Of a DNA stretch of 57,807 nucleotides, positions 2,825-32,103 are shown piece by piece. The stretch is from an uncultured Gammaproteobacteria bacterium (GTDB lineage Bacteria; Patescibacteriota; Microgenomatia; Daviesbacterales; UBA10151): the NCBI GenBank assembly GCA_964422835.1, contig CAYRCR010000004.1, positions 1 to 57,807 on the forward strand. Reading direction: 5' to 3'. Below the pieces are notes generated by a model. That model had not been told where the DNA came from and made no database searches. It saw nothing but the letters and a program-made list of their open reading frames with translations. Position numbers and translations under genes: made by a program. Each line of letters begins with the position of its first letter. Position 1 is the stretch's first letter.

Positions 2825-3727
2825 ATGGAACACGCTGTCCCGCAAAATGTCACCTCTTTTGAGTTCCATTTGGTTGGGGATATGACCCTGAAGCAATTTG
2901 CCTACCTGGGTTCCGGGTTGGGGATTGCTTTTTTGGTCTATTCAACCCTTTTCCAAACCCTACCCTATGTGGCAGCCCCCATTATAGTTATATCGGCCCT
3001 CTCGGGTGTTGCTCTGGCTTTTTTGCCAGTTCTTGACAGGCCCCTGGATCATTTTGTGCTGGCTTTTTTCAAAGCGATTTACTCCCCGACCAAAGGGGAA
3101 GTTAAACTTCCCCCGGGTACAAACAGGCTGCAACTGTTCCTGAAGCCGGCTCAACCGGCACCGGATAAACCTCAACAGACACCAAAAATTGTACCTGTCA
3201 ACCCCGGCTTGACACCAATTTCCCCCATACCCGATCAGGGCAAGAAAATTATTGAGCTTTTGCAACAAAATGCCGTTTTACAAAAAAAACTACTGGAAGT
3301 TGAACAAAATCTGCAAACCTTAAAACAGACCACCTCTATCCCCCGGCCCCCGCTTCCTGCCTCCCCGCCGGCCGGCGGGCCTGTTCCAACGCCTATTTAC
3401 CCCAAACCCCCCAAAGCCGTGGTAGTAGAACCTGTCAAACCCGTCAAAACCCAAATGCTCCTAACTTCATTCCCCAACGTGATAAACGGGGTGGTGGAAG
3501 AAGACGGTGATTTCCTGGAGGGAGTTATTGTCATCATCCATAACAAAGACAATATTCCGGTCAGGGCCCTAAAAACCAATAAACTAGGGCAATTTTCCGG
3601 TGCTACCCCGCTACCAAGCGGAGTCTACACTGTGACTCTGGAAAAAGAAGATTATAAATTTGATACCCTGCAAATTACCTTAACCGGGGAAATTTTATCG
3701 CCCCTGAAACTTAAACCAAGAAAATGA
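2825..3727 (+). CDS. PrgI-family (VirB3-like) T4SS membrane protein with a Pro-rich linker and a C-terminal beta-sandwich-like domain
   Basis: The N-terminus 'VPQNVTSFEFHLVGDMTLKQFAYLGSGLGIAFLV' fits the PrgI pattern (VPQ..., G.xTLKQFxYL plus TM helices). Its stop overlaps the next start as ATGA. Confidence 0.65.
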   Translation: MEHAVPQNVTSFEFHLVGDMTLKQFAYLGSGLGIAFLVYSTLFQTLPYVAAPIIVISALSGVALAFLPVLDRPLDHFVLAFFKAIYSPTKGEVKLPPGTNRLQLFLKPAQPAPDKPQQTPKIVPVNPGLTPISPIPDQGKKIIELLQQNAVLQKKLLEVEQNLQTLKQTTSIPRPPLPASPPAGGPVPTPIYPKPPKAVVVEPVKPVKTQMLLTSFPNVINGVVEEDGDFLEGVIVIIHNKDNIPVRALKTNKLGQFSGATPLPSGVYTVTLEKEDYKFDTLQITLTGEILSPLKLKPRK

Positions 3728-4446
3728 CGCCAAGTAAGCATTTTTTACCTATTGAAGATATAAGAGGCGACCTGATTATTTTAAAAAACGGCAATGTCGC
3801 CCTGGTGCTTTCCACCTCGGCTGTTAATTTTGCCCTGCTTTTCGAAACAGAACAAATTTCCATCATTGAATCTTTTGCGGGACTTTTAAATTCCCTCTCC
3901 TTCCCCATCCAAATATCAATTATGTCACGGCGTTTAGATGTATCCTCATATCTGACAACACTGGAACAAGCCAAGGCGCGCCAGAGTAACCCCTTGCTCC
4001 GGGCTTACACTGACCATTTCCGGGGCTTTGTAGAAAGCATCATTAAGGAAAATAATGTTTTGGATAAACAATTTTATGTCACAATAAGCGCTTCCGGAAC
4101 AGAACTCGGCATAGGTAGAATTAACCTCCAGGAAAAACTTCGGCGGGCAGCCACCATTTTATCACCCCGGAGAGACCACCTTATAAAACAGCTTTCCCGG
4201 CTCGGGATAAAAGCCCAGCAGCTCAATACTGTTGAGTTAGTCAAGCTCTTTTACTCGATTTATAATCCAAATACAGAGACAGTAAACCCTCCTGCCACAT
4301 CTGCCACTCCCCACCCCAAACTAGCCCGGCTTGCCCCACCCCCGCCTATTACCCCATCTCCCCCCACCACTGCCCGTCCGGTAGGAGGACCAACCAACAG
4401 CCCCCTTTCTCCCCCTTTTGTTGTGGAGGAATTGCCGGATGAATAA
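3724..4446 (+). CDS. VirB4/PrgJ N-terminal-domain-like protein with a Pro-rich tail
   Basis: 'IEDIRGDLIILKNGNVALVLSTSAVNFALLFETEQISIIESFAGLLNSLSFPIQISIMSRRLDVSSYL' resembles the N-terminal domain of Gram-positive VirB4/TraC ATPases. The ORF overlaps the start of the ATPase ORF (ATGAATAA). Confidence 0.5.
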   Translation: MTPSKHFLPIEDIRGDLIILKNGNVALVLSTSAVNFALLFETEQISIIESFAGLLNSLSFPIQISIMSRRLDVSSYLTTLEQAKARQSNPLLRAYTDHFRGFVESIIKENNVLDKQFYVTISASGTELGIGRINLQEKLRRAATILSPRRDHLIKQLSRLGIKAQQLNTVELVKLFYSIYNPNTETVNPPATSATPHPKLARLAPPPPITPSPPTTARPVGGPTNSPLSPPFVVEELPDE

Positions 4447-6133
4447 CATCCAGGATACTATTGCCCCGGAAAGCTTGGAACTTGATTTTAACCATCTCCG
4501 GCTAAATCAGACATTGAACCGCACATTTTTTGTATCAGGCTATCCCCGCTTTGTTGAGCCAAACTGGCTGGAGCCATTAATAGATTTTGAACACTCTCTG
4601 CGTATTTCCATGTTTATCTATCCCAGTAAATCAGCCGGAGTATTGGAAGATTTAAAGCGGAAAATTGCCGAGATGGAAGCCACTATTCAAACAGACACAG
4701 AACGCGGCCGGGAAGTTGACCCTTCGGTTTTGGCCAGTTTAGAAGACGCGCAGGAACTCCAGGCCCAACTGGTACGCGGTGCGGAACGCTTTTTTGAATA
4801 TAGCCTTTATGTCACAGTCCCGGCGGGCACGCCCGGCGAGCTAAACAACATTTCACAACTTGTTTCCTCAACACTGGGCAGTATCTCTATTACTGCCAGG
4901 CCCGCTACTCTGGAGATGAACGACGGTTTTACCTCCACCATCCCTTTAGGCGAGGATCCTCTTTACCTCGTCCATAATATGGATACCACCTCCCTGGCCA
5001 CCACTTTTCCTTTCACCACCTCCGAGTTGACTTCGCCTACCGGCGTAGTCTATGGGATCAACGAGCATAATGACTCCCTGATAATTTTTGACAGGTTTTC
5101 CCAGGAAAATGCCAATTCTGTAATTCTCGCCACATCCGGGGCCGGCAAATCCTATTTTGTTAAATTGGAAGCTCTCCGGTCTTTAATGCTGGGAGCCGAG
5201 GTGATTATTGTTGACCCGGAACGGGAGTATGTTAATTTGGCAACAGCCATTGGGGGTGACTACATCAACTTTTCCACCTCCTCGCCGGTCAAAATCAATC
5301 CATTTGACCTACCAAAAATGGAAACCAGCGAAGAAGATGAGCTGGGCCGCAAGATATTATCTTTAACCGGGTTTTTAAAACTGGTGCTGGGCGACTTGAC
5401 TCAAAACGAGGCTGCCCTGCTGGACCGGGCTCTAAATACCACCTACCGGCAAAAGGGCATAGTAGCGGGCAAACCTTATGACAAAATTGAACCGCCTTTG
5501 ATGGAAGATTTATATAAAGTGCTTTTAGGCATGGAAGATGCAACTTCCCAGGGTCTGGCCGCCAGGCTGGAACGGTTTATTAAAGGATCGCTGGCCGGCA
5601 TTTTCTCTTCCCGCTCCAATATTGAAATTAAAAATCAATTAACTGTCTTTTCCGTGCGGGACTTGCCTGATGCCCTCCGGCCGCTGGCAATTTACTTGAT
5701 CCTGGATTATATCTGGACCAAAATCAGGCATACACAAAAAAAGAGAATCCTGATTGTGGATGAAGCTTGGTATCTAATGAAATACCCCGACTCTGCCAGC
5801 TTCCTTGTCGAAATGGTCAAGCGCGCCCGCAAATATTTTCTGGGGGTTACTACCATCAGCCAGGATATTGAGGATTTTTGGGGGGCAAACCACGGCAAGG
5901 AAATTATTGCCAATTCCTCAATGCAAGTGCTTTTTAAGCAGGCTCCGATTTCCATTGAAAAGATCGGCGAGACGTTTAATTTATCACAAGGGGAGAAACG
6001 TCTGCTGCTTTCTGCCGGGGTGGGCAGGGGTTTGTTTTTTGCCGGCAATATCCATATTGCCATGAGAGTTGTGGCATCAGACGAAGAGCATAAATTGATT
6101 ACCACCAACCCAACGGAAATTTTAGGAAAATGA
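4439..6133 (+). CDS. VirB4/TraC/PrgJ-like T4SS ATPase
   Basis: Walker A 'ATSGAGKSYF' and Walker B 'ILIVDEAWYL' are present. I prefer the ATG at 4439, which is preceded by GGAGGA, over the 4418 ORF start in the track. Confidence 0.85.
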   Translation: MNNIQDTIAPESLELDFNHLRLNQTLNRTFFVSGYPRFVEPNWLEPLIDFEHSLRISMFIYPSKSAGVLEDLKRKIAEMEATIQTDTERGREVDPSVLASLEDAQELQAQLVRGAERFFEYSLYVTVPAGTPGELNNISQLVSSTLGSISITARPATLEMNDGFTSTIPLGEDPLYLVHNMDTTSLATTFPFTTSELTSPTGVVYGINEHNDSLIIFDRFSQENANSVILATSGAGKSYFVKLEALRSLMLGAEVIIVDPEREYVNLATAIGGDYINFSTSSPVKINPFDLPKMETSEEDELGRKILSLTGFLKLVLGDLTQNEAALLDRALNTTYRQKGIVAGKPYDKIEPPLMEDLYKVLLGMEDATSQGLAARLERFIKGSLAGIFSSRSNIEIKNQLTVFSVRDLPDALRPLAIYLILDYIWTKIRHTQKKRILIVDEAWYLMKYPDSASFLVEMVKRARKYFLGVTTISQDIEDFWGANHGKEIIANSSMQVLFKQAPISIEKIGETFNLSQGEKRLLLSAGVGRGLFFAGNIHIAMRVVASDEEHKLITTNPTEILGK

Positions 6134-13523: not shown

Positions 13524-13895
13524 ATGCTTCCTAAAAGTAAAAGATTAAATCTCAAGAAGGATTTTAAATGGGTGGCATCTGGACAAAAAATAGAAGATTC
13601 CCTAATGAAGATTTTTTACAGATCTTGTGATCCCTCGACTCAGTTTACCCTGAGCTTGTCGAAGGGCTCAGGACCTTCAGTTGGGATTGCATTATCAACC
13701 TCGGTTTTTCGAAAAGCAGTTGATCGAAACAGGGCAAGACGCTTAACTTCCAAAGCGTTTGAGGGACTTTATGATAAAATACCCCGGAACCTGAATATTG
13801 TGGCTATGCCCAAGGCCGGAATTCTGGATAAAAAGTCTGGGGAAGTAATAAAGGACTTGGAAGAATTACTAATGAAAAACGATCTTTTGAAGTGA
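13524..13895 (+). CDS. rnpA: RNase P protein component
   Basis: 'AVDRNRARRLTSKAF' matches the RNR motif region, and the rpmH-rnpA-yidD-yidC synteny is standard. The gene contains a hairpin-module insertion at 13647..13672. Confidence 0.85.
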   Translation: MLPKSKRLNLKKDFKWVASGQKIEDSLMKIFYRSCDPSTQFTLSLSKGSGPSVGIALSTSVFRKAVDRNRARRLTSKAFEGLYDKIPRNLNIVAMPKAGILDKKSGEVIKDLEELLMKNDLLK

Positions 13896-13987
13896 GAAAT
13901 GAGAAGTGAGAATTTGAAATCTTGAATTCAAGAATTCTTGACATCAAAAATTCAATATCAAAAATATCCCACATCTCACGTCAAAAC
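13884..13987. repeat. MITE-like palindromic repeat, copy A (full length, overlaps the rnpA stop codon)
   Basis: The terminal inverted repeats are 'CTTTTGAAGTGAGAAATGAGAAGTGAGA' and 'TCCCACATCTCACGTCAAAAC'. The palindromic core is 'CTTGAATTCAAGAATTCTTGACATCAA'. Related copies lie at 24854, 44626 and 46723. Confidence 0.75.
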
Positions 13988-23884: not shown

Positions 23885-25174
23885 CTATCCAGACAGTGAC
23901 AGGTTGGGGTTGGCTTGGAGGGTTAGGGGATCGGCTGGTTTAAAATTATAGAAAGCAGCCGCTGCGATGTAAGCTGCATTGTCTGTACAAAGAGATGGGG
24001 GAGGCATGAACACAGTTCGCGCTTGCGCGCTAAAAACCCCGGCATGTGGTATTTTTAATTTAGCCTTTGCAACGAGCTGACTGGACAACATTTGGTTGGC
24101 AGCCACCCCTCCGGCCACGACAATTTGGGTCACATTATTAACTTTTGTGGCCTGAATAGTTTTTGTGATCAATACATCAAGGATGGCTTGTTGTATAGAG
24201 GCGCAGAGATTATTCATTATTTGTTCTCGCTCGGGGTCCTGCCGCTCCAGTTTCCCGTCGTCCGTCCTCATCGTCATTGCGGGCGCGGCGTCGGGAGCCC
24301 TCTTGCGCGTCACCCCTCGCTCCATTTCCTGAACTAAATTAAGTACCGCTGTTTTGAGTCCCGAAAAAGAGAAGTCAAAATCTTTGGAATTAATCATTGG
24401 CCGGGGTAATTTGTAGGCTTTGGGGTTGCCTTTTTCTGCCAGTTTGGAAATAATGGGGCCTCCGGGGTATCCTAAACCCAAAAGCCTGGCGCACTTATCA
24501 AAACATTCTCCGGCCGCATCATCCCGTGTTCCTCCTAAATATTCATACTTGCCATGACTCTTAAAGAGAACCAGGTCTGTATGCCCTCCGGAAACAAGAA
24601 GGCCAATACAGGGGAAGCTGGGGGTTATAGGAGCTTCTCGATTCGAAGACTCTCTCGAAGAAGAACTATTGTTCGAGCGCAGTCGAGAACTTTCCTCTTG
24701 TTGTATCCAATTTGCATAAAAATGACCCAGTAAGTGATTGACCGGCACTAAAGGTTTTTGCCAGATTATGGATAAGACCTTGGCAGTTTCAACACCAACG
24801 AGTAGTGAGCCGATCAGTCCCGGGCCTTCTGTTACAGCAATGGCATCTATTTTGGAAATGAGATGTGAGAGGTGAGATGTTTTTGATATCGAATTCTTAA
24901 TATCAAGATCTCTTGACTTCAAAGAATCAGGTTCACACTTCTCATTTCCCACTTCAAAAGCTCTAAGCAGTGTTTCTTCAATAACCGGAATAATGGATTT
25001 TAACTGTTCCCGGGCAGCCTGTTCCGGGATAACCCCACCATATTTAGACTGCAGATCAGCCGAGGAGGCGACGATATTGGATAATAAAGTTACTCTATCT
25101 CCCTCTTTTTGAACGACTGCAGCAGCCGTTTCATCACAACTACTCTCTATTCCCAGGATTATTTTTGGTTTCAT
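23885..25174 (-). CDS. tsaD: tRNA N6-adenosine threonylcarbamoyltransferase TsaD carrying three insertion segments
   Basis: 'ILGIESSCDETAAAVV', 'GPGLIGSLLVG', 'LLVSGGHTDL' and 'FSFSGLKT' are conserved TsaD/Kae1 blocks. The product is 429 aa, compared with about 340 aa for typical TsaD. Confidence 0.9.
   Translation of the reverse strand: MKPKIILGIESSCDETAAAVVQKEGDRVTLLSNIVASSADLQSKYGGVIPEQAAREQLKSIIPVIEETLLRAFEVGNEKCEPDSLKSRDLDIKNSISKTSHLSHLISKIDAIAVTEGPGLIGSLLVGVETAKVLSIIWQKPLVPVNHLLGHFYANWIQQEESSRLRSNNSSSSRESSNREAPITPSFPCIGLLVSGGHTDLVLFKSHGKYEYLGGTRDDAAGECFDKCARLLGLGYPGGPIISKLAEKGNPKAYKLPRPMINSKDFDFSFSGLKTAVLNLVQEMERGVTRKRAPDAAPAMTMRTDDGKLERQDPEREQIMNNLCASIQQAILDVLITKTIQATKVNNVTQIVVAGGVAANQMLSSQLVAKAKLKIPHAGVFSAQARTVFMPPPSLCTDNAAYIAAAAFYNFKPADPLTLQANPNLSLSG
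24854..24960. repeat. MITE-like palindromic repeat, copy C (inverted orientation, in frame inside tsaD)
   Basis: The reverse complement 'CTTTTGAAGTGGGAAATGAGAAGTGTGAA...GATATCAAAAACATCTCACCTCTCACATCTCATTTCC' aligns with copy A. It encodes roughly 'FEVGNEKCEPDSLKSRDLDIKNSISKTSHLSHLIS'. Confidence 0.75.
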
Positions 25175-25202
25175 GTTGCTATTGTACCAAATCCCAAAAA
25201 TT

Positions 25203-25576
25203 TTTAACCCCGACGGTACTGAAGTCTTTTCTTTAAAAGATTTTCGCGGTACCCGCCCTCTCTTTTGTGTTTTTCCTCAACAGCATTAATTTGTTTATCT
25301 AAGTCTTTCTAAACGGACGATGTCCCCAAAATCTTCCAGGACTTCCACGCTTGAAGCTTTGGCTACATCGTATAATTTGAGCTTGGAAGATAGACTTCTT
25401 TCTGCCGAACCTTCGACTATATTTTGTTTATAGGAACGGAGGGCCTGTTTTATTTAGTCCCTTTGCCTGGAGTCTTCATATTTAGAATAATATTTGGGTA
25501 CAAAATCCCAGCCTAAATCAAAAGCAAGTTGGGCCAACTTATAGCTAATGAGGGATCTGTGCCCAGCCTCTGCCAT
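25203..25576 (-). pseudogene. Disrupted four-helix-bundle protein gene (23S rRNA IVS-protein-like family)
   Basis: The minus-strand translation reads 'MAEAGHRSLISYKLAQLAFDLGWDFVPKYYSKYEDSRQRD*IKQALRSYKQNIVEGSAERSLSSKLKLYDVAKASSVEVLEDF'. It contains in-frame stops, and the track shows no intact ORF here. Confidence 0.45.
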
Positions 25577-26220
25577 AAAATCAGCATAGCATAAAAAATT
25601 TAATAGAATTCGGGTTGTGTAATTTGCTATAATCTAGTCAATGGGTGAGATAGTTCTATTTCCGTGCGGGATAATTCCATTTCAAAGACCTGAAGTTAAA
25701 GGGTGTGTTAAAGGGCTTGAAGTTGAAGGAGGTTTTTATGTTGATCCTGAAGCTGAAGGGAGGATCACCCAAGAGGTTTTGGAGGAAACTAGAGGAGGTG
25801 CTTTTAATATAGGGGGGTTGCGGGGGTGTCAACGGTGGGCGAATTCTTCAGCCCCCAGAGCTCAAATAATTGAGTTTAGAAAAGAGCCCGAATTCCCCTA
25901 GCCAGAAATATTACAACAATCAACGATCGTTCAGTATTGTAAGATTTATGACACAATCCCATCTCCGAGGCGGGAGTTTCTGGATTATCCCCCGAAATCG
26001 TTGAGTTTTATATTTATATAACGGGCTCGTTTATGAGATTAATCTTAAAGAGAAAATAATTAAGTGATTGACATAAAAATTGTTTTAGGGGATTAGTCTA
26101 GTTTCATTACGCTTCAATTATGAAATTCAGGGTTGATGAAAGAATATTTTAAATTAAAATTCTTTTGGGTCAATTAAAACAAGATCAAAATTGGGGTAGG
26201 TTGAGGTATAAACTAGCCTG

Positions 26221-26469
26221 GTGGGGGTTTCAATGCCCATCGCTTTAAAAATTGGCGGATATATCCTTCTGGATATTGGGGTTGCAGAAACATATATTTT
26301 GGATTTTGAAAAAAATATTTACGATAGATGGATTTCGGTAAGTTTAATTAAGAAAATCCGCAACAATAAAAAATTTCCTTCTGCCAAAGGATTAATTATC
26401 CAAATGAAAAAAGATGAATCAGAAGCAAAAAAATATTTTGAATACCACGGCGTTTCCAGGAAACTTTAG
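26221..26469 (+). pseudogene. Riboflavin kinase C-terminal fragment (5'-truncated remnant of a ribF-like gene)
   Basis: 'ETYILDFEKNIYDRWISVSLIKKIRNNKKFPSAKGLIIQMKKDESEAKKYF' resembles the end of the riboflavin kinase domain. The frame is closed by TAA at 26209..26211, so the N-terminal two-thirds is missing. Confidence 0.45.
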
Positions 26470-26482
26470 TTTAAGATTAAAG

Positions 26483-26911
26483 TCAATAAAAGAATGTATA
26501 TTTTATACCATTAAAAGAATATATTAGGATTGGTAAATAAATTAAAGCGGTTAATATTAAGAATATTTTATGTGTGTAATTCTTAGTTAATCTAATATGA
26601 ATGACTAATCCTGTGACGGCGTAAATTTCTAGGGTTGGAAAAAGATAGAATACGGTTAAAAGTAATATTATATCCGGTATATTAGACCAAAAATAATGAT
26701 ACGGTAGAAAAATAAAGCTTTGGGAGAATTGATGAAGAAATGGATTATTGATTTTAGGCGTTCCCGCTTCTTGTATGGATAGATCTGGTAAAGTGTAAAG
26801 ACTCCCAGCTCCGTCTATAAGCATACTTAAATAGAAGTAAAAACCGATAGAGAAGATTAATAGAACCAGTTTAAGTGGAAATATTTTTGTCATATGATAT
26901 TTATTATACAA
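26483..26911 (-). CDS. Hypothetical integral membrane protein (142 aa)
   Basis: Four hydrophobic helices in a very AT-rich gene. No motif. Confidence 0.45.
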   Translation of the reverse strand: MYNKYHMTKIFPLKLVLLIFSIGFYFYLSMLIDGAGSLYTLPDLSIQEAGTPKINNPFLHQFSQSFIFLPYHYFWSNIPDIILLLTVFYLFPTLEIYAVTGLVIHIRLTKNYTHKIFLILTALIYLPILIYSFNGIKYTFFY

Positions 26912-26977: not shown

Positions 26978-27808
26978 ATGAGCAATAATAGATTGGCAAT
27001 TTTTGAAGGTAAAAAAATCCGCAAGTATTGGGATAAAAAACAAGAAAGATGGTACTTCTCTGTTGTGGATATTATCCAGACTTTAATTGACCAGCCGGAA
27101 TTTCAAATTGCCCGCAAGTACTGGAATAAGCTTAATGAAAGGCTTAGGAAGGAAGGAAGCGAGGTGGTGACAAATTGTCACCGACTGAAATTGGAAGCGT
27201 CTGATGGAAAAAAGTATTTAACGGATGCTGCAGATGTCGAAACTTTATTCCGCATCATTCAATCCGTTCCTAGCCCCAAAGCAGAACCAATAAAACTTTG
27301 GCTTGCCAAGGTTGCGCAAGAAAGAATTCAGGAAATGGCGGATCCCGAAAAAGCACTTAATAGAAGCCGTGATTATTGGCAAAGGATGGGCAGGAGTGGA
27401 AAATGGATTCAGCAAAGGATGATGGGGCAGGAAATCCGCAATAAATTAACCGATTACTGGAAGAATAATGAAGTGAAAGAAAAAGATGAATACGCAATTT
27501 TGACTAATATCATTCATGAGGAGTGGAGCGAATTAACTGTGAAAGAGCACAAAAAATTAAAGAAATTAAAAACTGAAAATTTACGCGACCATATGACTGA
27601 CGCAGAACTTGTGTTTACTGCTCTGGCGGAACTTTCTACCCGCCAAATCGCAGAGGTAGATCAAACCAAGGGTCTGGAAGAAAATAAAATTCCGGCTCAA
27701 AAAGGCGGTAGAATTGCCAGAAATGCCAGATTGGAACTCGAAGAAAAAACCGGCAAAAAAGTTGTCAGTAAATTAAATTATCTCCCCGGACAAAAAAGGT
27801 TAAAATAG
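26978..27808 (+). CDS. Bro-N domain DNA-binding protein (DinD/antirepressor-like)
   Basis: 'LAIFEGKKIRKYWDKKQERWYFSVVDIIQTL' fits the Bro-N pattern. A long helical C-terminal region follows. Confidence 0.65.
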   Translation: MSNNRLAIFEGKKIRKYWDKKQERWYFSVVDIIQTLIDQPEFQIARKYWNKLNERLRKEGSEVVTNCHRLKLEASDGKKYLTDAADVETLFRIIQSVPSPKAEPIKLWLAKVAQERIQEMADPEKALNRSRDYWQRMGRSGKWIQQRMMGQEIRNKLTDYWKNNEVKEKDEYAILTNIIHEEWSELTVKEHKKLKKLKTENLRDHMTDAELVFTALAELSTRQIAEVDQTKGLEENKIPAQKGGRIARNARLELEEKTGKKVVSKLNYLPGQKRLK

Positions 27809-27813
27809 AGGAG

Positions 27814-28647
27814 ATGATAACCCCAAAACATATTGGTTTTGTTAAAGATGCCATATTTTTATCCAATACTTCCTTGCGGGATTTTATAAAATGTCCCAGG
27901 GCGTATTATTTGAAAAATATTTACAAAGACCCACGTAATGGTTATAGGATCCAGATTGCTTCCCCTTATCTTACTTTAGGGACTTTAGTCCATGAAACAA
28001 TCAAGTGGTTTCTGGACAGTAGACAGCAACTTCCCCTATCTTCCCTGGAAGAACAATACCGCAATTTATGGCACAGATTCCAAGGCAAAAGAGGAGGTTT
28101 TACATCCAAAGAAGAAGAGGCTTCATTTGGTAAGCGGGGCCTTGAAATGCTTTCAAATTTCGGAGAGAACTGGAAAAAGCTTGAAGCAAAAATGCCCCCT
28201 GTTTCTTTTCCCAAATACCCCCTGACTGATAATATTATTTTGACAGGCAACATGGATTTTGTGGGAGCCTTGCCGGACGGGAGCTTGCATGTTGTGGATT
28301 TTAAAACCGGAACCCGCGATGAGGATGACCCCATTCAACTCTACATTTATGCCATTTTGGCTGAAAATAATTATGGTAAGGATGTGACTTGTGCCAGCTT
28401 TTGGTACCTTGACCGGGACGATACTCCCAAAGATATTGTGCTTGATCCCCTTGAGCCAAAAATTGAGGAGTTAACCCAAAGAGGTTTGGAGATTGAAAAG
28501 GGATTAAAGGAGGGGAAATGGGAGTGTCCCCGCGGGGATGAAGGGTGCTTTGAATGCCGGGATTATGAAAAGATTTTAGCAGGTAAAGGAGAATGGGTTT
28601 TTACAGATCACAACTTCAAAAAAGAAATTTTCTTTTTATCAAAATAG
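27814..28647 (+). CDS. PD-(D/E)XK nuclease, Cas4/RecB-like, with a four-Cys Fe-S cluster signature
   Basis: The N-terminal 'CPRAYYL' Cys is present, together with 'MDFVG...HVVDFKTG' (D...D-x-K), 'IQLYIYA' (QxxxY) and the C-terminal 'CPRGDEGCFEC'. The gap from the Bro-N gene is 5 nt. Confidence 0.8.
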   Translation: MITPKHIGFVKDAIFLSNTSLRDFIKCPRAYYLKNIYKDPRNGYRIQIASPYLTLGTLVHETIKWFLDSRQQLPLSSLEEQYRNLWHRFQGKRGGFTSKEEEASFGKRGLEMLSNFGENWKKLEAKMPPVSFPKYPLTDNIILTGNMDFVGALPDGSLHVVDFKTGTRDEDDPIQLYIYAILAENNYGKDVTCASFWYLDRDDTPKDIVLDPLEPKIEELTQRGLEIEKGLKEGKWECPRGDEGCFECRDYEKILAGKGEWVFTDHNFKKEIFFLSK

Positions 28648-28651
28648 TTTT

Positions 28652-30121
28652 TTAAGAATAATTCGGGATCCCCATCTTTTTAATTAATTTTCTGACTTCG
28701 TCTCTGTCGGCATTGACATATTTGCTGTCATACTCTTCTGCTGTTAATGTCTCGCCATTTGCATCTATCAGCACCGGAAATTTTAAAGCCATTCTTAAAT
28801 ATTTAACATCCGAATAAAAAACTTGTTTGCTTTTGAGTAAAATATGGTCTTTATCTATTTGATAATTTATTTGTAACCCCAGATGTTGATGTAGTTTATC
28901 TATGTCCTCGCGGGCGGGTTGTCTTTTGATTGCCTTTCTACAAATGTTTTTTTGGGAGACGGGACAAGACGGGGAACAATAATATTTTTGTCGGATCCAT
29001 TGGCAGTTATAGTCCGGTTGGTTGAAGAGATAACTTATGGCACAGGAAGTTTTCTTAAAGTAAGGAATTTTCGCTTTCGCTAAAATAGCATCAACCATGT
29101 TTCTGCTTTCGGGCAGCATTTTTTTGCATGAATCATGGATGTTAAGCCCAATGTCATGTTTTGGGTCAATAAAAATACCCTGTTTGGCCATGTACTCAAT
29201 AATGTTGACATCCAGTTTTATGGGAGAGCGGACAATGCAATGAAAGTACTTTTCGCCTAAATCAACTATTTTCCGGGCACAATTTTCGGAATCGTTAACG
29301 CCGCGGATAATGGGGCGGTAATAAAGTACCTTTTTTAAGCGCGATTTTGACAAATTCTTCATGGTCAGAAGCCTTTTTTCTACTACCACTCGTTCATATT
29401 TTTGGGGCAGGCAGGAGAATGTCACAAAGATAATCGGCCGGATATTTTTATATTCCTGCAGGCGGGTGATGATTTGATCCGTCATGTATTCTTTGGTGAT
29501 CAAACCGACGATATTGGTAAGCTTCATTCTTTCCAGGCCGTCAAGTATTTCAAAAGTGGTCCCGGTCACACCAGTTTGAAACGGATCAGTGGCACTGTTG
29601 TGAATGGCCAGAGGAATATTCGGGTGGTAATATTTATGACTTTTTAAGTTGTCCAAGATTTCAGAAACCTCGCAAAATTTTTCCGGAATAAACTTATTCC
29701 TTATATCCCAGCCGTGTTTATAGCAATAGACACAGTTATTGCGGCATCCTGCAACGGCATTCAAACATAAAAAGTTTTTAGCCAAAACAATAGGTTTGAG
29801 CTTAACCTTTAATTTTCCCCTGGAGGTTTGTCGTTGGGTTTCCCGAACCTTATATTTGGCAAGACTTGTCCGAAGCTCCTTTTTCAGGTCAATGTTGCAA
29901 GTATTGGCAAGGCTGATAAGAGAATAAAAGGCATCGCCCAACTCTCTGGCCAGATCCGGATTATAAATGTGGCCCCTTTTACCGTAATCGGTCAATTCCA
30001 AAACTTCTTTGGCAATTTCCCCCACTTCACTTGAGAGATCAAGGCAACAAAGTTCCGGGGTATTGGCAAGATTTAATTTCTTGCTAACCTCTCGGACTTC
30101 TTTTTGCAGACTAATCAACAT
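28652..30121 (-). CDS. Fusion protein: N-terminal MazG-like NTP pyrophosphohydrolase domain plus a radical SAM domain (SplB-like) and a Cys-rich C-terminal region
   Basis: The MazG-like helices are 'LSSEVGEIAKEVLEL...LARELGDAFYSLISLANTCNIDL'. The radical SAM motif is 'GCRNNCVYCY' (CX3CX2C). A later Cys cluster reads 'CAISYLFNQPDYNCQWIRQKYYCSPSCPVSQKNIC'. Confidence 0.8.
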   Translation of the reverse strand: MLISLQKEVREVSKKLNLANTPELCCLDLSSEVGEIAKEVLELTDYGKRGHIYNPDLARELGDAFYSLISLANTCNIDLKKELRTSLAKYKVRETQRQTSRGKLKVKLKPIVLAKNFLCLNAVAGCRNNCVYCYKHGWDIRNKFIPEKFCEVSEILDNLKSHKYYHPNIPLAIHNSATDPFQTGVTGTTFEILDGLERMKLTNIVGLITKEYMTDQIITRLQEYKNIRPIIFVTFSCLPQKYERVVVEKRLLTMKNLSKSRLKKVLYYRPIIRGVNDSENCARKIVDLGEKYFHCIVRSPIKLDVNIIEYMAKQGIFIDPKHDIGLNIHDSCKKMLPESRNMVDAILAKAKIPYFKKTSCAISYLFNQPDYNCQWIRQKYYCSPSCPVSQKNICRKAIKRQPAREDIDKLHQHLGLQINYQIDKDHILLKSKQVFYSDVKYLRMALKFPVLIDANGETLTAEEYDSKYVNADRDEVRKLIKKMGIPNYS

Positions 30122-30124
30122 AAG

Positions 30125-30751
30125 TTATTTTTTTCTAAAGCGCGAGGTGGCAATTTCCAGCATGGTTGGGGTATGTTTGGCTACAAGGTCAATGGAGGCG
30201 CGTATTTCTTCGGGCAGTGTTAGGAAAATTTTACAGCCTTCTTTAAGCCGTGCCAGCCTGATATTGCCGATAGAGTCCATGAGGGTGTCAGGGTAAAAAT
30301 TGATCCAACACTGTTGAAAATTACTCATGGAATAAGGATGATCAGGAGGCGCGTAATGCTCGCGCGGCAGAAAGTCGCGGAATAGGCTTGCTTTGAATGT
30401 TTTATCCAACACTTCGGGATGCTTTTGATCAGCTTCCCAGAGCACTTCCCAGCTGAAATGCTCCAAGTTTGCTGCCCAATCCCAAGGTTCCGGTTCCGGC
30501 GGGACAATGTATTTTCCCCTTAAAGCTGCCACAACGGCCCCGCTTAGACAAAAATGCGCCCATTCAGCAATGGTCGGGCAGCGATTTTCTCTAATACATG
30601 AAGCTACCAGTGCTCTCTCCAAACTAAAATCAAAATCCCAGTTATGAGGTTCCTTATCAAACCATAGCCTGTCTTTACTCCAACAAGTTGGAGCTTTGTA
30701 TAAAAGTTTCCCGGGCAGTGTTAATGTATTGGCTTTCGTTAAACATTCCAT
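30125..30751 (-). CDS. Hypothetical Trp/Cys-rich protein (208 aa), first gene of the operon with the MazG-radical SAM gene
   Basis: The ORF is intact and is separated by 3 nt from the downstream radical SAM gene. I recognise no motif. Confidence 0.6.
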   Translation of the reverse strand: MECLTKANTLTLPGKLLYKAPTCWSKDRLWFDKEPHNWDFDFSLERALVASCIRENRCPTIAEWAHFCLSGAVVAALRGKYIVPPEPEPWDWAANLEHFSWEVLWEADQKHPEVLDKTFKASLFRDFLPREHYAPPDHPYSMSNFQQCWINFYPDTLMDSIGNIRLARLKEGCKIFLTLPEEIRASIDLVAKHTPTMLEIATSRFRKK

Positions 30752-30808
30752 TTGGTTATTCCCACAAACAGAATAATTTTTTACCAGATTTTTATCCAGT
30801 TCATAGAA

Positions 30809-30860
30809 TTTGACTCAAAAAGCTTTGACCAAGTCAAACTTGGCTTCGCCATGATACAAT
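30809..30860 (+). promoter_or_regulatory. Candidate operator and -10 element in the divergent promoter region
   Basis: TTTGACTCAAA lies at 30809..30819. The palindrome TTTGAC-CAA-GTCAAA lies at 30824..30838. TACAAT lies at 30855..30860, only 6 nt before the ATG at 30867. Confidence 0.4.
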
Positions 30861-30866
30861 CCGAGC

Positions 30867-31532
30867 ATGCATCCTATCAAAAAACAAATTTTACATGCCT
30901 TAATTACCAATTCCTTTTTATCTTATTCCAAACTTAAGCCTGAAGGGCTGGAAGGAAATATTTTTATGTATCACTTGAAGCAATTAACCAATGATGGTTT
31001 GGTACAAAAAAGAGATGATGGTAAGTATGAACTGACCCTGGAAGGCCAGAATTTTTCTGACAGCTTAAGTTTGAAAACTTTAAATCCCCGGATCCAGCCC
31101 AAAATTGTCACTTTGCTTGTTTGCCAGAACAATAAAGGAGAATTTTTGCTTTACAAAAGAGGCAAACAGCCTTTCTTGGGCCTTATTGGTTTTCCTTATG
31201 GGAAAATCCATCTGGGGGAGAAAATTGCTGCGGCGGCAGAAAGGGAACTTTTGGAAAAAACCGGACTTAAAACAAAACCCGTGCATCGGGGTGATGTTTA
31301 CCTGACCATATTCAAAAATGGCCAAGTTTTTACCCAGATGTTTTGCCATGTTTTTACGAGCAAAAATACCAAAGGGGAATTGATACAAAGATCAGAAATA
31401 GGACAATGTTTTTGGGAAAAAATTAATAACCCCAAAGACCCAAAATTTATGTCCGGATTTGCGGAAGTTTTTTCTTTGGTCAAAAAGAGAAACAGGGGAT
31501 TATTTTTTACAGAGCTTACCTATAACCTGTAA
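30867..31532 (+). CDS. Winged-HTH plus Nudix-domain protein (possible Nudix-type transcriptional regulator)
   Basis: The N-terminus 'KKQILHALITNSFLSYSKLKPEG...MYHLKQLTNDGLVQKRDDGKYELT' looks like a wHTH. The Nudix box reads 'GKIHLGEKIAAAAERELLEKTGL', with REUXEK in place of REUXEE. Confidence 0.75.
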   Translation: MHPIKKQILHALITNSFLSYSKLKPEGLEGNIFMYHLKQLTNDGLVQKRDDGKYELTLEGQNFSDSLSLKTLNPRIQPKIVTLLVCQNNKGEFLLYKRGKQPFLGLIGFPYGKIHLGEKIAAAAERELLEKTGLKTKPVHRGDVYLTIFKNGQVFTQMFCHVFTSKNTKGELIQRSEIGQCFWEKINNPKDPKFMSGFAEVFSLVKKRNRGLFFTELTYNL

Positions 31533-32103
31533 TATCCAAACGGTTGCTGGTAAATGGCAGGAAAGTTAGAGATAGATGGGGTGTCTCATTTCCCTCCTCG
31601 TAAAGATATCTAAGATCAACATGGTCTAACCTGGTAGGTAAAAAACCAAGAGTGCAATTACCCGCACCTCCAAAAATAGGAGTGAGCCTTTCCAAAATTC
31701 TGCGTTTATAAGGAAGTAAAGGAGTTTCACCTTGAATTTCTGTGAGGATGATGTGAGTAGCTGTATTTCTTGCGCTGGTCATCGCTTCTTCAATTTGACT
31801 GGAGTTTTGGTAAAACAGTAGAGCCAAATTAGGAGGGGGGGTGATTAACATCCCAACACCTACACTTAATGATACTGTCTGATAACCTTCCGTAGATTGT
31901 GCAGCAGCGTCTTTTAGCCCTTGTGCCAAGTATGAAAATAGAGTGAATCTGACTTCAGAACTGATAATTCCCGACATTGCTTTTATATCAGTAGCTTCAA
32001 CAACTGTGCTTTGTTCATAGTGTGGTTGTTGCGCCATAATTGCATCGGCAATTGATTCGCACGCTTGTTGTCTGATCTGGGCTCTGGAAATTTCAGTTGT
32101 CAT
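31516..32103 (-). CDS. Hypothetical protein (195 aa)
   Basis: Intact ORF with no motif. Its 3' end overlaps the Nudix gene 3' end by 17 nt in convergent orientation. Confidence 0.5.
   Translation of the reverse strand: MTTEISRAQIRQQACESIADAIMAQQPHYEQSTVVEATDIKAMSGIISSEVRFTLFSYLAQGLKDAAAQSTEGYQTVSLSVGVGMLITPPPNLALLFYQNSSQIEEAMTSARNTATHIILTEIQGETPLLPYKRRILERLTPIFGGAGNCTLGFLPTRLDHVDLRYLYEEGNETPHLSLTFLPFTSNRLDITGYR

Follow-up and report, generated by a model that had tools for sequence, protein, structure and literature searches.

The subject of this report is a gene for a protein of 489 residues in which a MazG-type nucleoside triphosphate (NTP) pyrophosphohydrolase domain is joined to a radical SAM enzyme. 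Together with a close-coupled gene for a protein of 208 residues, it lies within a 57,807-nt stretch of DNA (positions 1 to 57,807 of contig CAYRCR010000004.1, assembly GCA_964422835.1, placed by GTDB in the Daviesbacterales), which we refer to in its entirety as the window. The two open reading frames (ORFs) are separated by 3 nt (TAA-CTT-ATG), as had been recognised in an earlier note on this DNA made by a model from the letters alone. The features of the locus, in window coordinates, are as follows.

28652..30121, minus strand: gene for the 489-aa MazG–radical SAM fusion (ORF, homologous clusters and AlphaFold2 model)
30125..30751, minus strand: gene for the 208-aa Trp/Cys-rich protein, close-coupled and upstream of the fusion gene (ORF)
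29837..30061, minus strand: MazG-type all-alpha NTP pyrophosphohydrolase domain, residues 21-95 of the fusion (Pfam PF03819)
29723..29746, minus strand: CX3CX2C radical SAM cluster motif, C126/C130/C133 of the fusion (invariant in the close family)
29132..29800, minus strand: radical SAM partial-TIM-barrel core, residues ~108-330 of the fusion (AlphaFold2, Foldseek, weak Pfam match)
28940..29056, minus strand: C-terminal Cys segment, residues 356-394 of the fusion, KKTSC…C…CP..Q…C (family alignment)

The N-terminal domain of the fusion is matched by Pfam PF03819 (MazG) over residues 21-95 at 26.3 bits, against a gathering cut-off of 22 (E 9.4e-6). Its best solved relatives are the MazG-like YpjD structures 2gta and 5ie9, and a profile of the family searched against solved structures likewise returns YpjD 2gta (E 4e-8). 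The metal-binding acidic residues E32, E35, E39, E60 and D63 are kept in all 17 members of the family that bear the domain, with S-E32-V-G-E35…E39 and E60-L-G-D63 aligning to EELGE…EEIGD of YpjD. The fusion thus shares with MazG/YpjD-type enzymes both the above-threshold Pfam score and the EXXE…E…EXXD arrangement of acidic residues, and differs from them in the covalent link of its domain to a radical SAM enzyme and in having Ser in place of the first Glu of the canonical EEXXE motif.

The remainder of the protein is predicted to be a SAM-cleaving enzyme with a partial (beta/alpha)6 TIM-barrel radical SAM fold. The CX3CX2C motif, 'CRNNCVYC', is invariant in 23 of 23 close members and present in at least 90% of 149 wider relatives. 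Pfam Radical_SAM matches the protein weakly (E 0.086). An AlphaFold2 model built from the family alignment reached an overall predicted local distance difference test score (pLDDT) of 81.6 and a predicted template modelling score of 0.79, and is confident over residues ~110-450, where pLDDT is mostly above 90. Foldseek placed pyruvate formate-lyase (PFL)-activating enzyme 3c8f first (E 3.7e-5) and spore photoproduct lyase 4fhg second (E 9e-5, TM 0.43), with a probability of 1.00 to PFL-activating enzyme, spore photoproduct lyase, BioB and RlmN-like enzymes. Beyond the core lie five Cys residues, C360, C373, C382, C386 and C394, of which all except C373 are invariant in the close family; this C-terminal module is kept as far as plasmid-borne and TIR-fused relatives, and C360/C382/C386/C394 form a putative auxiliary Fe-S or Zn site. 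The earlier note had proposed a MazG-type domain, an intact CX3CX2C motif and a five-Cys segment after the core; all three are borne out by alignment of the close family, the MazG residues in the members that bear the domain and the Cys segment in four of its five Cys.

Within the radical SAM superfamily the fusion sits outside every curated group. Among curated families, PA0069, Rv2578c, 'radical SAM mobile pair B' and spore photoproduct lyase come nearest, each scoring far below its cut-off. PA0069 (NF033668), the best NCBIfam match, scores 17.5 bits against a cut-off of 360 and over the core only, so that membership of this family can be dismissed. A spore photoproduct lyase identity was also rejected: the SplB profile TIGR04070 does not match the fusion at E ≤ 0.1 and is weakly matched by only 2 of 73 relatives, the similarity is confined to the generic radical SAM core, and searches of solved structures with the window protein, the family profile and a broad profile recovered no spore photoproduct lyase. 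Both profiles returned from the solved structures only MazG-like proteins or generic radical SAM N-termini, none of them close, and a fold search of BFVD gave generic phage radical SAM proteins only. The fusion is not a prokaryotic viperin either: PADLOC gives no match, and the top 50 fold matches do not include one. These low curated scores, and the lack of a close structure, indicate an uncurated clade of the SplB/COG1533-like branch outside every characterised family. With SplB, PA0069, Rv2578c and mobile pair B the fusion shares that branch, as weak profile matches, and a CX3CX2C motif near the start of a partial TIM barrel; it differs from them in a C-terminal half, KTSC…DYN…CxxCP..Q…C, that is unique to its clade.

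The description of the enzyme as SplB/DNA-photolyase-like in the earlier note consequently stands for the COG1533 branch and for the second-ranked fold match, and not for membership of SplB or PA0069. We found no description in the literature of a MazG–radical SAM fusion, nor any MazG fusion reported for the SplB, PA0069, Rv2578c or mobile pair B families. The same note's view that this is not a characterised architecture is upheld by the lack of a literature description, of a PADLOC v2 model and of a close solved structure. The fusion is therefore an uncharacterised clade with an undescribed domain fusion inside a known superfamily, and not something categorically new.

The clade is rare. A search of 5.8 billion proteins gave 23 homologous clusters, at 54-71% identity, and a further one at 34%; the one named member is from Candidatus Daviesbacteria. 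Of 185,579 species-representative genomes only three carry it: a Daviesbacteria metagenome-assembled genome (MAG), the unclassified DBS2-1.bin86 and a MAG labelled Niyogibacteria. A copy at 66% identity on MHMS01000006.1 (locus L013, labelled Candidatus Niyogibacteria) lies in a MAG assigned to another lineage of the candidate phyla radiation (CPR), the Parcubacteria; either the gene was transferred horizontally or the MAG was wrongly binned or labelled. A scan of viral contigs with the close fusion family gave no match and tblastn against phage genome records recovered no radical SAM relatives; a phage match to the relative P0134 was due to its nucleotidyltransferase domain alone and was discarded.

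The radical SAM module itself is far more widespread. An exhaustive profile search of 1.84 billion representatives defined a wider family of 1222 relatives (clusters at 50% identity) at E ≤ 1e-3, 116 of them at E ≤ 1e-30; most are standalone proteins of ~350 aa, with the core motifs and the C-terminal motif described above in common, and this family of more than 1200 clusters carries generic labels only. Among its 150 best relatives, 14 possess an N-terminal TIR or nucleoside-2-deoxyribosyltransferase-like domain followed by a common linker (one of these, P0127, matches TIR_2 at E 1e-24 as well as PADLOC TIR models), two carry a sugar-1-phosphate nucleotidyltransferase, two a C-terminal GT2 domain and one TCAD9 with an APH-type kinase; all of these fusion domains act on nucleotides. 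Five more share an extension of ~200 aa, N-terminal in P0107 and P0129 and C-terminal in P0088, P0092 and P0156. The best solved-structure match of the extension profile is YpjD (E 0.0095), with DE(I/L)SDVL aligned to the metal-binding EEIGDVLF; Pfam MazG and MazG-like models match weakly, and alignment with the MazG domain of the window protein (hhalign) gives E 2e-4. From these sequence comparisons the extension looks like a tandem MazG-like module. It is thus probable that a MazG-type pyrophosphatase became combined with the radical SAM module more than once, in independent architectures, and this recurrence speaks for a functional pairing. The MazG association that the earlier note singled out accordingly recurs in distant members of the family, at either terminus.

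Relatives in cultured bacteria reside on plasmids, and here the module keeps regular company. We located it on 36 plasmids by tblastn and read 12 annotated contexts for their gene content. In 10 of the 12, the radical SAM gene forms a cassette with a 3'-5' exonuclease and an AAA_28 P-loop protein of ~195 aa (L017 6911-9206, L019, L020, L021, L023 and L025-L028), on plasmids of Agrobacterium, Labrenzia, Streptomyces, Mesorhizobium, Gluconobacter, Sinorhizobium and Rhizobium. The cassette is apparently unnamed, and we found no description of it in the literature. Its exonuclease is of the RNase_T/DEDDh family, with ExoX and Pol III epsilon as nearest relatives. Sometimes the next gene encodes an HD-domain protein, of weak dGTPase similarity, or else an aldo/keto reductase, and in Streptomyces the cassette is preceded by thymidylate-synthase-like and nucleoside diphosphate kinase (NDK) genes. 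The surroundings include an anti-phage dGTPase, GIY-YIG, WYL and TIR genes in A. vitis; a CBASS operon and TcmP–DUF5131 in S. meliloti; an ABC-three-component system and VapC in Rhizobium; RelE and HNH in Gluconobacter; VapBC, an integrase and a large helicase in Mesorhizobium; and a large N6-methylase in Labrenzia. Read qualitatively, defence genes adjoin the module in five to six alphaproteobacterial plasmid contexts, and not in the Daviesbacteria-type or Streptomyces contexts. Among the family and cassette proteins, the only PADLOC matches are to the DEDDh exonuclease and to the TIR parts of fused relatives. Two RefSeq 'radical SAM protein' coding sequences (L019 7085-8047 and L021 6172-7131) begin downstream of CX3CX2C; since the tblastn match in Labrenzia starts ~84 nt upstream of the annotated start, the start codons have probably been mis-called.

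The setting of the fusion in the window is of a different kind. The neighbouring features are as follows.

30809..30838, strand not applicable: operator-like palindromes TTTGACTCAAA (30809-30819) and TTTGACcaaGTCAAA (30824-30838), in the divergent intergenic region 30752-30866
30867..31532, plus strand: winged helix-turn-helix (wHTH)-Nudix protein, 221 aa, divergent neighbour and likely regulator (Pfam NUDIX and weak wHTH matches)
27814..28647, plus strand: Cas4-like PD-(D/E)XK nuclease, convergent neighbour (PF12705, E 4.7e-19; syntenic in L008 and L010)
26978..27808, plus strand: Bro-N protein matching the PADLOC candidate PDC-S13 (PDLC04920, E 1e-117; phrog_15286, E 2e-89)

Each of the three protein neighbours named in the earlier note was matched in family profile scans. 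Its impression of a locus more AT-rich than its neighbours was mistaken: the GC content is 0.415 in the two genes, 0.410 in the whole window, and 0.414 and 0.389 in the flanks of 8.6 kb.

Comparison with two syntenic loci, L010 and L008, revealed that the fusion occupies a variable slot. Between these loci the flank containing the PD-(D/E)XK and TsaD genes is 97% identical, and that containing LigT, the Nudix gene and the 208-aa-type gene is 80-83% identical. Where L010 carries the fusion, L008 has two overlapping genes encoding 198 and 231 aa (3298-4586), placed exactly at the fusion boundaries. The encoded proteins have no Pfam, PHROG or PADLOC match, and their derivation from a split fusion gene was ruled out by tblastn and blastp; they represent alternative cargo behind the same 208-aa-type gene.

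The 208-aa protein itself contains 9 Trp and 7 Cys and, in keeping with the earlier statement that it has no recognisable motif, yielded no meaningful Pfam, NCBIfam, PADLOC or PHROG match; its AlphaFold2 model (pLDDT 40.5) is unusable. It has three other clusters in 5.8 billion sequences, with further homologues in L010, L015 and L016. We surveyed its linkage to the fusion over 10 distinct fusion contexts and four informative contexts of the 208-aa protein. It adjoins the fusion in 2 of the 10, namely the window and the syntenic L010, and the fusion stands beside it in 2 of the 4, with homologues lacking the fusion in L008 and L015. Elsewhere the fusion directly faces a divergent wHTH-Nudix gene with no 208-aa gene between (L001/2/12 and L011), has an unrelated 212-215-aa protein upstream (L003/14 and L004) or has still other neighbours there (L005, L006, L009 and L013). 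The upstream genes of L003 and L004 were considered as divergent 208-aa relatives and rejected, being negative by hidden Markov model and forming their own family at 47% identity. In L016 a short Nudix gene (168 aa, without wHTH; 145-651) lies just upstream of the 208-aa homologue; the 208-aa protein is thus a steadier companion of Nudix genes than of the fusion. Taken together, the exact swap and the survey of contexts show the fusion to be accessory and swappable and the 208-aa protein not to be an obligate partner; we infer that the latter is an optional, lineage-restricted companion. The conserved two-gene system of the earlier note is thus not borne out, conserved linkage between the genes being absent.

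What might such an enzyme do? The partners that recur with the radical SAM module, whether fused or adjacent (MazG, HD, AAA_28, NDK, thymidylate-synthase-like, TIR/deoxyribosyltransferase-like and sugar-nucleotidyltransferase proteins), act on the phosphate chain, glycosidic bond or base of nucleotides. The accessory nature of the gene and the defence islands that surround some relatives hint at a part in conflict with phages or with plasmids and other mobile DNA. Given relatives in plasmid defence islands with nucleotide-processing partners, the fusion is a credible, unproven candidate for a nucleotide-modifying defence enzyme, and our preferred reading, tentative as it is and slightly less likely than not to be right, is that it performs radical chemistry on a free nucleotide with a likely role in conflict. 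It would be a bifunctional nucleotide-processing enzyme: the MazG domain would convert a (d)NTP to (d)NMP and pyrophosphate, and the radical SAM domain, by means of a 5'-deoxyadenosyl radical, would modify either the resulting nucleotide or the still uncleaved triphosphate. The fusion could thereby draw on the canonical nucleotide pool to produce a non-canonical nucleotide, or to restrict one. In the larger cassettes, kinases could return the product to the triphosphate level and the proofreading-type exonuclease may remove it from host DNA.

It is tempting to speculate further that the whole radical SAM clade is the core of an unnamed family of anti-phage systems that make or destroy a non-canonical (deoxy)nucleotide, a proposal that we regard as possible and decidedly more doubtful. 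Here the helpers that set the phosphate state (a fused MazG domain, an HD hydrolase, an AAA_28 kinase or NDK) would be interchangeable, the proofreading-type exonuclease would protect host DNA, and the Daviesbacteria fusion, under a nucleotide-sensing wHTH-Nudix repressor, would be a minimal single-protein version.

Known systems offer analogies for such a scheme. Phage T4 makes its modified dNTP by way of a dCTPase, a thymidylate-synthase-like hydroxymethylase and kinases; its dCTPase, gp56, feeds the hydroxymethyl-dC pathway and is an all-alpha pyrophosphohydrolase of the MazG/YpjD type. By analogy, the set of MazG-type pyrophosphatase, thymidylate-synthase-like protein, kinase and NDK found here mirrors the T4 route. 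Prokaryotic viperins (pVips) with nucleotide kinases, and Ophion, which combines a viperin-like radical SAM protein with PHP and PRTase (bioRxiv 10.1101/2025.09.30.679545), resemble the present family in logic only: a radical SAM enzyme is accompanied by enzymes of nucleotide phosphorylation or salvage, in defence islands, with a plausibly modified nucleotide as product. The family of the fusion differs from them in belonging to another radical SAM branch, in its partners (MazG, ExoX-like exonuclease, AAA_28 and HD) and in being known from genes alone. Ophion, being viperin-like, and HXS, a peptide maturase, are the two radical SAM defence systems that the literature yielded; they belong to other branches, were rejected as relatives and serve as analogies only.

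Several observations weigh against a nucleotide-modifying role in defence. The neighbours of the fusion in Daviesbacteria-type loci are mostly housekeeping, repair or nucleotide-metabolism genes, including DNA-alkylation repair, GIY-YIG, YfbR-like HD, NrdR, LigT and hydrogenase maturation genes, and no recognised defence system is adjacent in these loci apart from the PDC-S13 candidate. No PADLOC-DB v2.0 model matches the fusion, the 208-aa protein or the plasmid radical SAM relatives. The MazG region is modelled as helical at pLDDT 35-59, a low confidence, and each line of evidence for the tandem MazG-like module in distant relatives is weak. The MazG domain is moreover missing from five clusters (P0018-P0022; in L006 there is no room for it because an NrdR gene lies 137 nt upstream), and its absence from this subclade implies that it is dispensable for radical SAM activity. 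The functional steps set out above all derive from domain identity and association. The idea, already raised in the earlier note, of a nucleotide-modifying defence enzyme is therefore sustained at the level of the family, by its fusions and by the defence settings of its plasmid members, and falls short in this genome, where the surroundings of the gene do not support a defence island.

The foremost alternative is repair of DNA or RNA damage, in which the SplB-like radical SAM domain would reverse or process a lesion, the MazG domain would sanitise damaged (d)NTPs in the manner of the house-cleaning members of the MazG and MutT groups, and the exonuclease and P-loop protein of the cassettes would be partners in excision and end-healing. 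The nearest curated relatives, SplB, PA0069 and Rv2578c, have links to DNA repair; the fold match ranked second is spore photoproduct lyase, and IMG names relatives 'DNA repair photolyase'. The CPR neighbours include Nudix (MutT-like), RecB/Cas4-like nuclease, LigT 2H phosphoesterase, DNA-alkylation repair and GIY-YIG genes, with RecR within 7 kb, and the exonuclease of the cassette is similar to ExoX and to the epsilon subunit that proofreads. COG1533 genes are, in addition, SOS-regulated in several phyla (PMC8565304). Repair keeps its weight because the nearest named relatives of the fusion are repair enzymes and because of this SOS regulation. Set against it, however, are SplB-type matches that lie far below cut-offs and cover a generic core, with a C-terminal half specific to the family; fusions to sugar-nucleotidyltransferase, GT2, TIR and TCAD9 domains that are hard to explain for a repair lyase; a very patchy distribution and a swap between close relatives, both atypical of core repair genes; and plasmid cassettes that repeatedly adjoin CBASS, dGTPase, TIR and toxin–antitoxin genes. 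On this balance we consider repair somewhat unlikely.

Biosynthesis rather than defence is a further alternative, whether of a modified deoxynucleotide for hypermodification of self-DNA or of a nucleoside or nucleotide-sugar natural product, with MazG supplying the monophosphate. On Streptomyces linear plasmids the cassette follows thymidylate-synthase-like and NDK genes, precedes an aldo/keto reductase and lies near DUF6415 'natural product biosynthesis' genes; in S. anthocyanicus GT4, aldolase and MurA-like genes are directly upstream; and NTP-transferase and GT2 fusions occur in the family. Hypermodification is weakened, however, because pathways of this kind are typically phage-borne and the module is missing from phage genome records. 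Neither the window nor the other Daviesbacteria-type loci hold other biosynthetic genes beside the fusion, and the alphaproteobacterial contexts look like defence islands and not biosynthetic clusters. A biosynthetic role appears to us improbable. Least probable of all is a true two-component system with the 208-aa protein as obligate partner (sensor, substrate or chaperone) of the fusion, for although the genes are 3 nt apart in the window and overlap in L010, and the 208-aa gene persists as the first gene of the variable slot in all of the window, L010 and L008, where it could be a conserved adaptor to swappable cargo, the partner is missing from 8 of the 10 distinct fusion contexts, occurs without the fusion in L008 and L015 and has relatives in only three clusters plus three from loci, against 1222 clusters for the radical SAM family.

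Radical SAM chemistry on nucleotides underlies viperin, one of few immune mechanisms common to bacteria and humans. If an unrelated lineage of radical SAM enzymes were to follow a similar logic, the known set of antiviral nucleotide analogues would grow. The presence of the family on plasmids of culturable Agrobacterium, Sinorhizobium, Gluconobacter and Streptomyces makes the proposal directly testable, which is the main value of the finding, and the recurrent partners (MazG, HD, P-loop, NDK, thymidylate-synthase-like and ExoX-like exonuclease) yield a concrete biochemical hypothesis. Should the family consist of repair enzymes instead, it would represent a new SplB-like repair activity. In CPR bacteria a locus of this kind is a rare case: the gene slot is clearly accessory, its content can be swapped, and regulator and operator are conserved.

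The likely regulator, the wHTH-Nudix gene, is the most regular neighbour of the fusion: in L001/2/12, L010, L011 and L008 an orthologue stands in divergent orientation next to either the fusion or the 208-aa gene. The protein matches Pfam NUDIX at E 1.5e-13 and shows weak wHTH matches at its N-terminus. In five aligned intergenic regions (window, L010, L008, L001 and L011) the palindrome TTTGA(C/G)TCAAA, preceded by a GTCAAA half-site, is invariant, within surrounding sequence that has diverged and beside Nudix proteins down to 47% identity. This 11-mer is present a single time in the window, where chance would give 0.04 occurrences, exactly once and at the same site in every Nudix-bearing locus, and in the Nudix-less loci not at all apart from one intragenic occurrence. 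On both strands, hexamers resembling promoter elements lie beside it or overlap it. Another perfect palindrome, TTTGACcaaGTCAAA, is found in the window only; the longer palindrome TTTGACnnnGTCAAA was rejected as the conserved operator, being window-specific, the shorter TTTGA(C/G)TCAAA being the conserved one. Judged by their sequence and position, both palindromes of the window look like a wHTH-Nudix operator over divergent promoter-like sites.

The wHTH-Nudix protein probably represses both divergent promoters through TTTGA(C/G)TCAAA in the manner of NrtR-type regulators, and its control of the fusion could respond to a nucleotide ligand. With NrtR-type regulators it shares a Nudix fold combined with a winged helix, adjacent divergent targets and a conserved palindromic operator; it differs from them in its reversed domain order (wHTH N-terminal, Nudix C-terminal) and in matching the NCBIfam ADP-ribose (ADPR)-responsive repressor at only E 0.085. 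Its Nudix box is nearly canonical (RELLEK), so that the protein may still be catalytic.

Some minor features of the window complete the picture. Rfam gave no family match anywhere within it. Beyond the Nudix gene, a convergent ORF of 195 aa (31516-32103, minus strand) overlaps the 3' end of that gene by 17 nt; it matches no family, and the syntenic L008 and L010 lack a counterpart and have a gene of ~270 aa beside LigT instead. On the other side, the Bro-N gene, whose product matches the PDC-S13 candidate over nearly its full length, is accompanied by a membrane-like ORF of 142 aa (26483-26911, minus strand) with a very low GC content of 0.28. Both are missing from L008 and L010, which suggests a separate insertion between the PD-(D/E)XK gene and TsaD. 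As regards the pseudogenes mentioned in the earlier note, positions 25175-26482 contain no long ORFs. The window TsaD (23885-25174, minus strand) is 429 aa long, against 364 aa in L008 and L010, and carries Ser/Arg-rich low-complexity inserts; apart from this main gene, a TsaD-like fragment of 33 aa at 70% identity lies at 13880-13978 on the plus strand.

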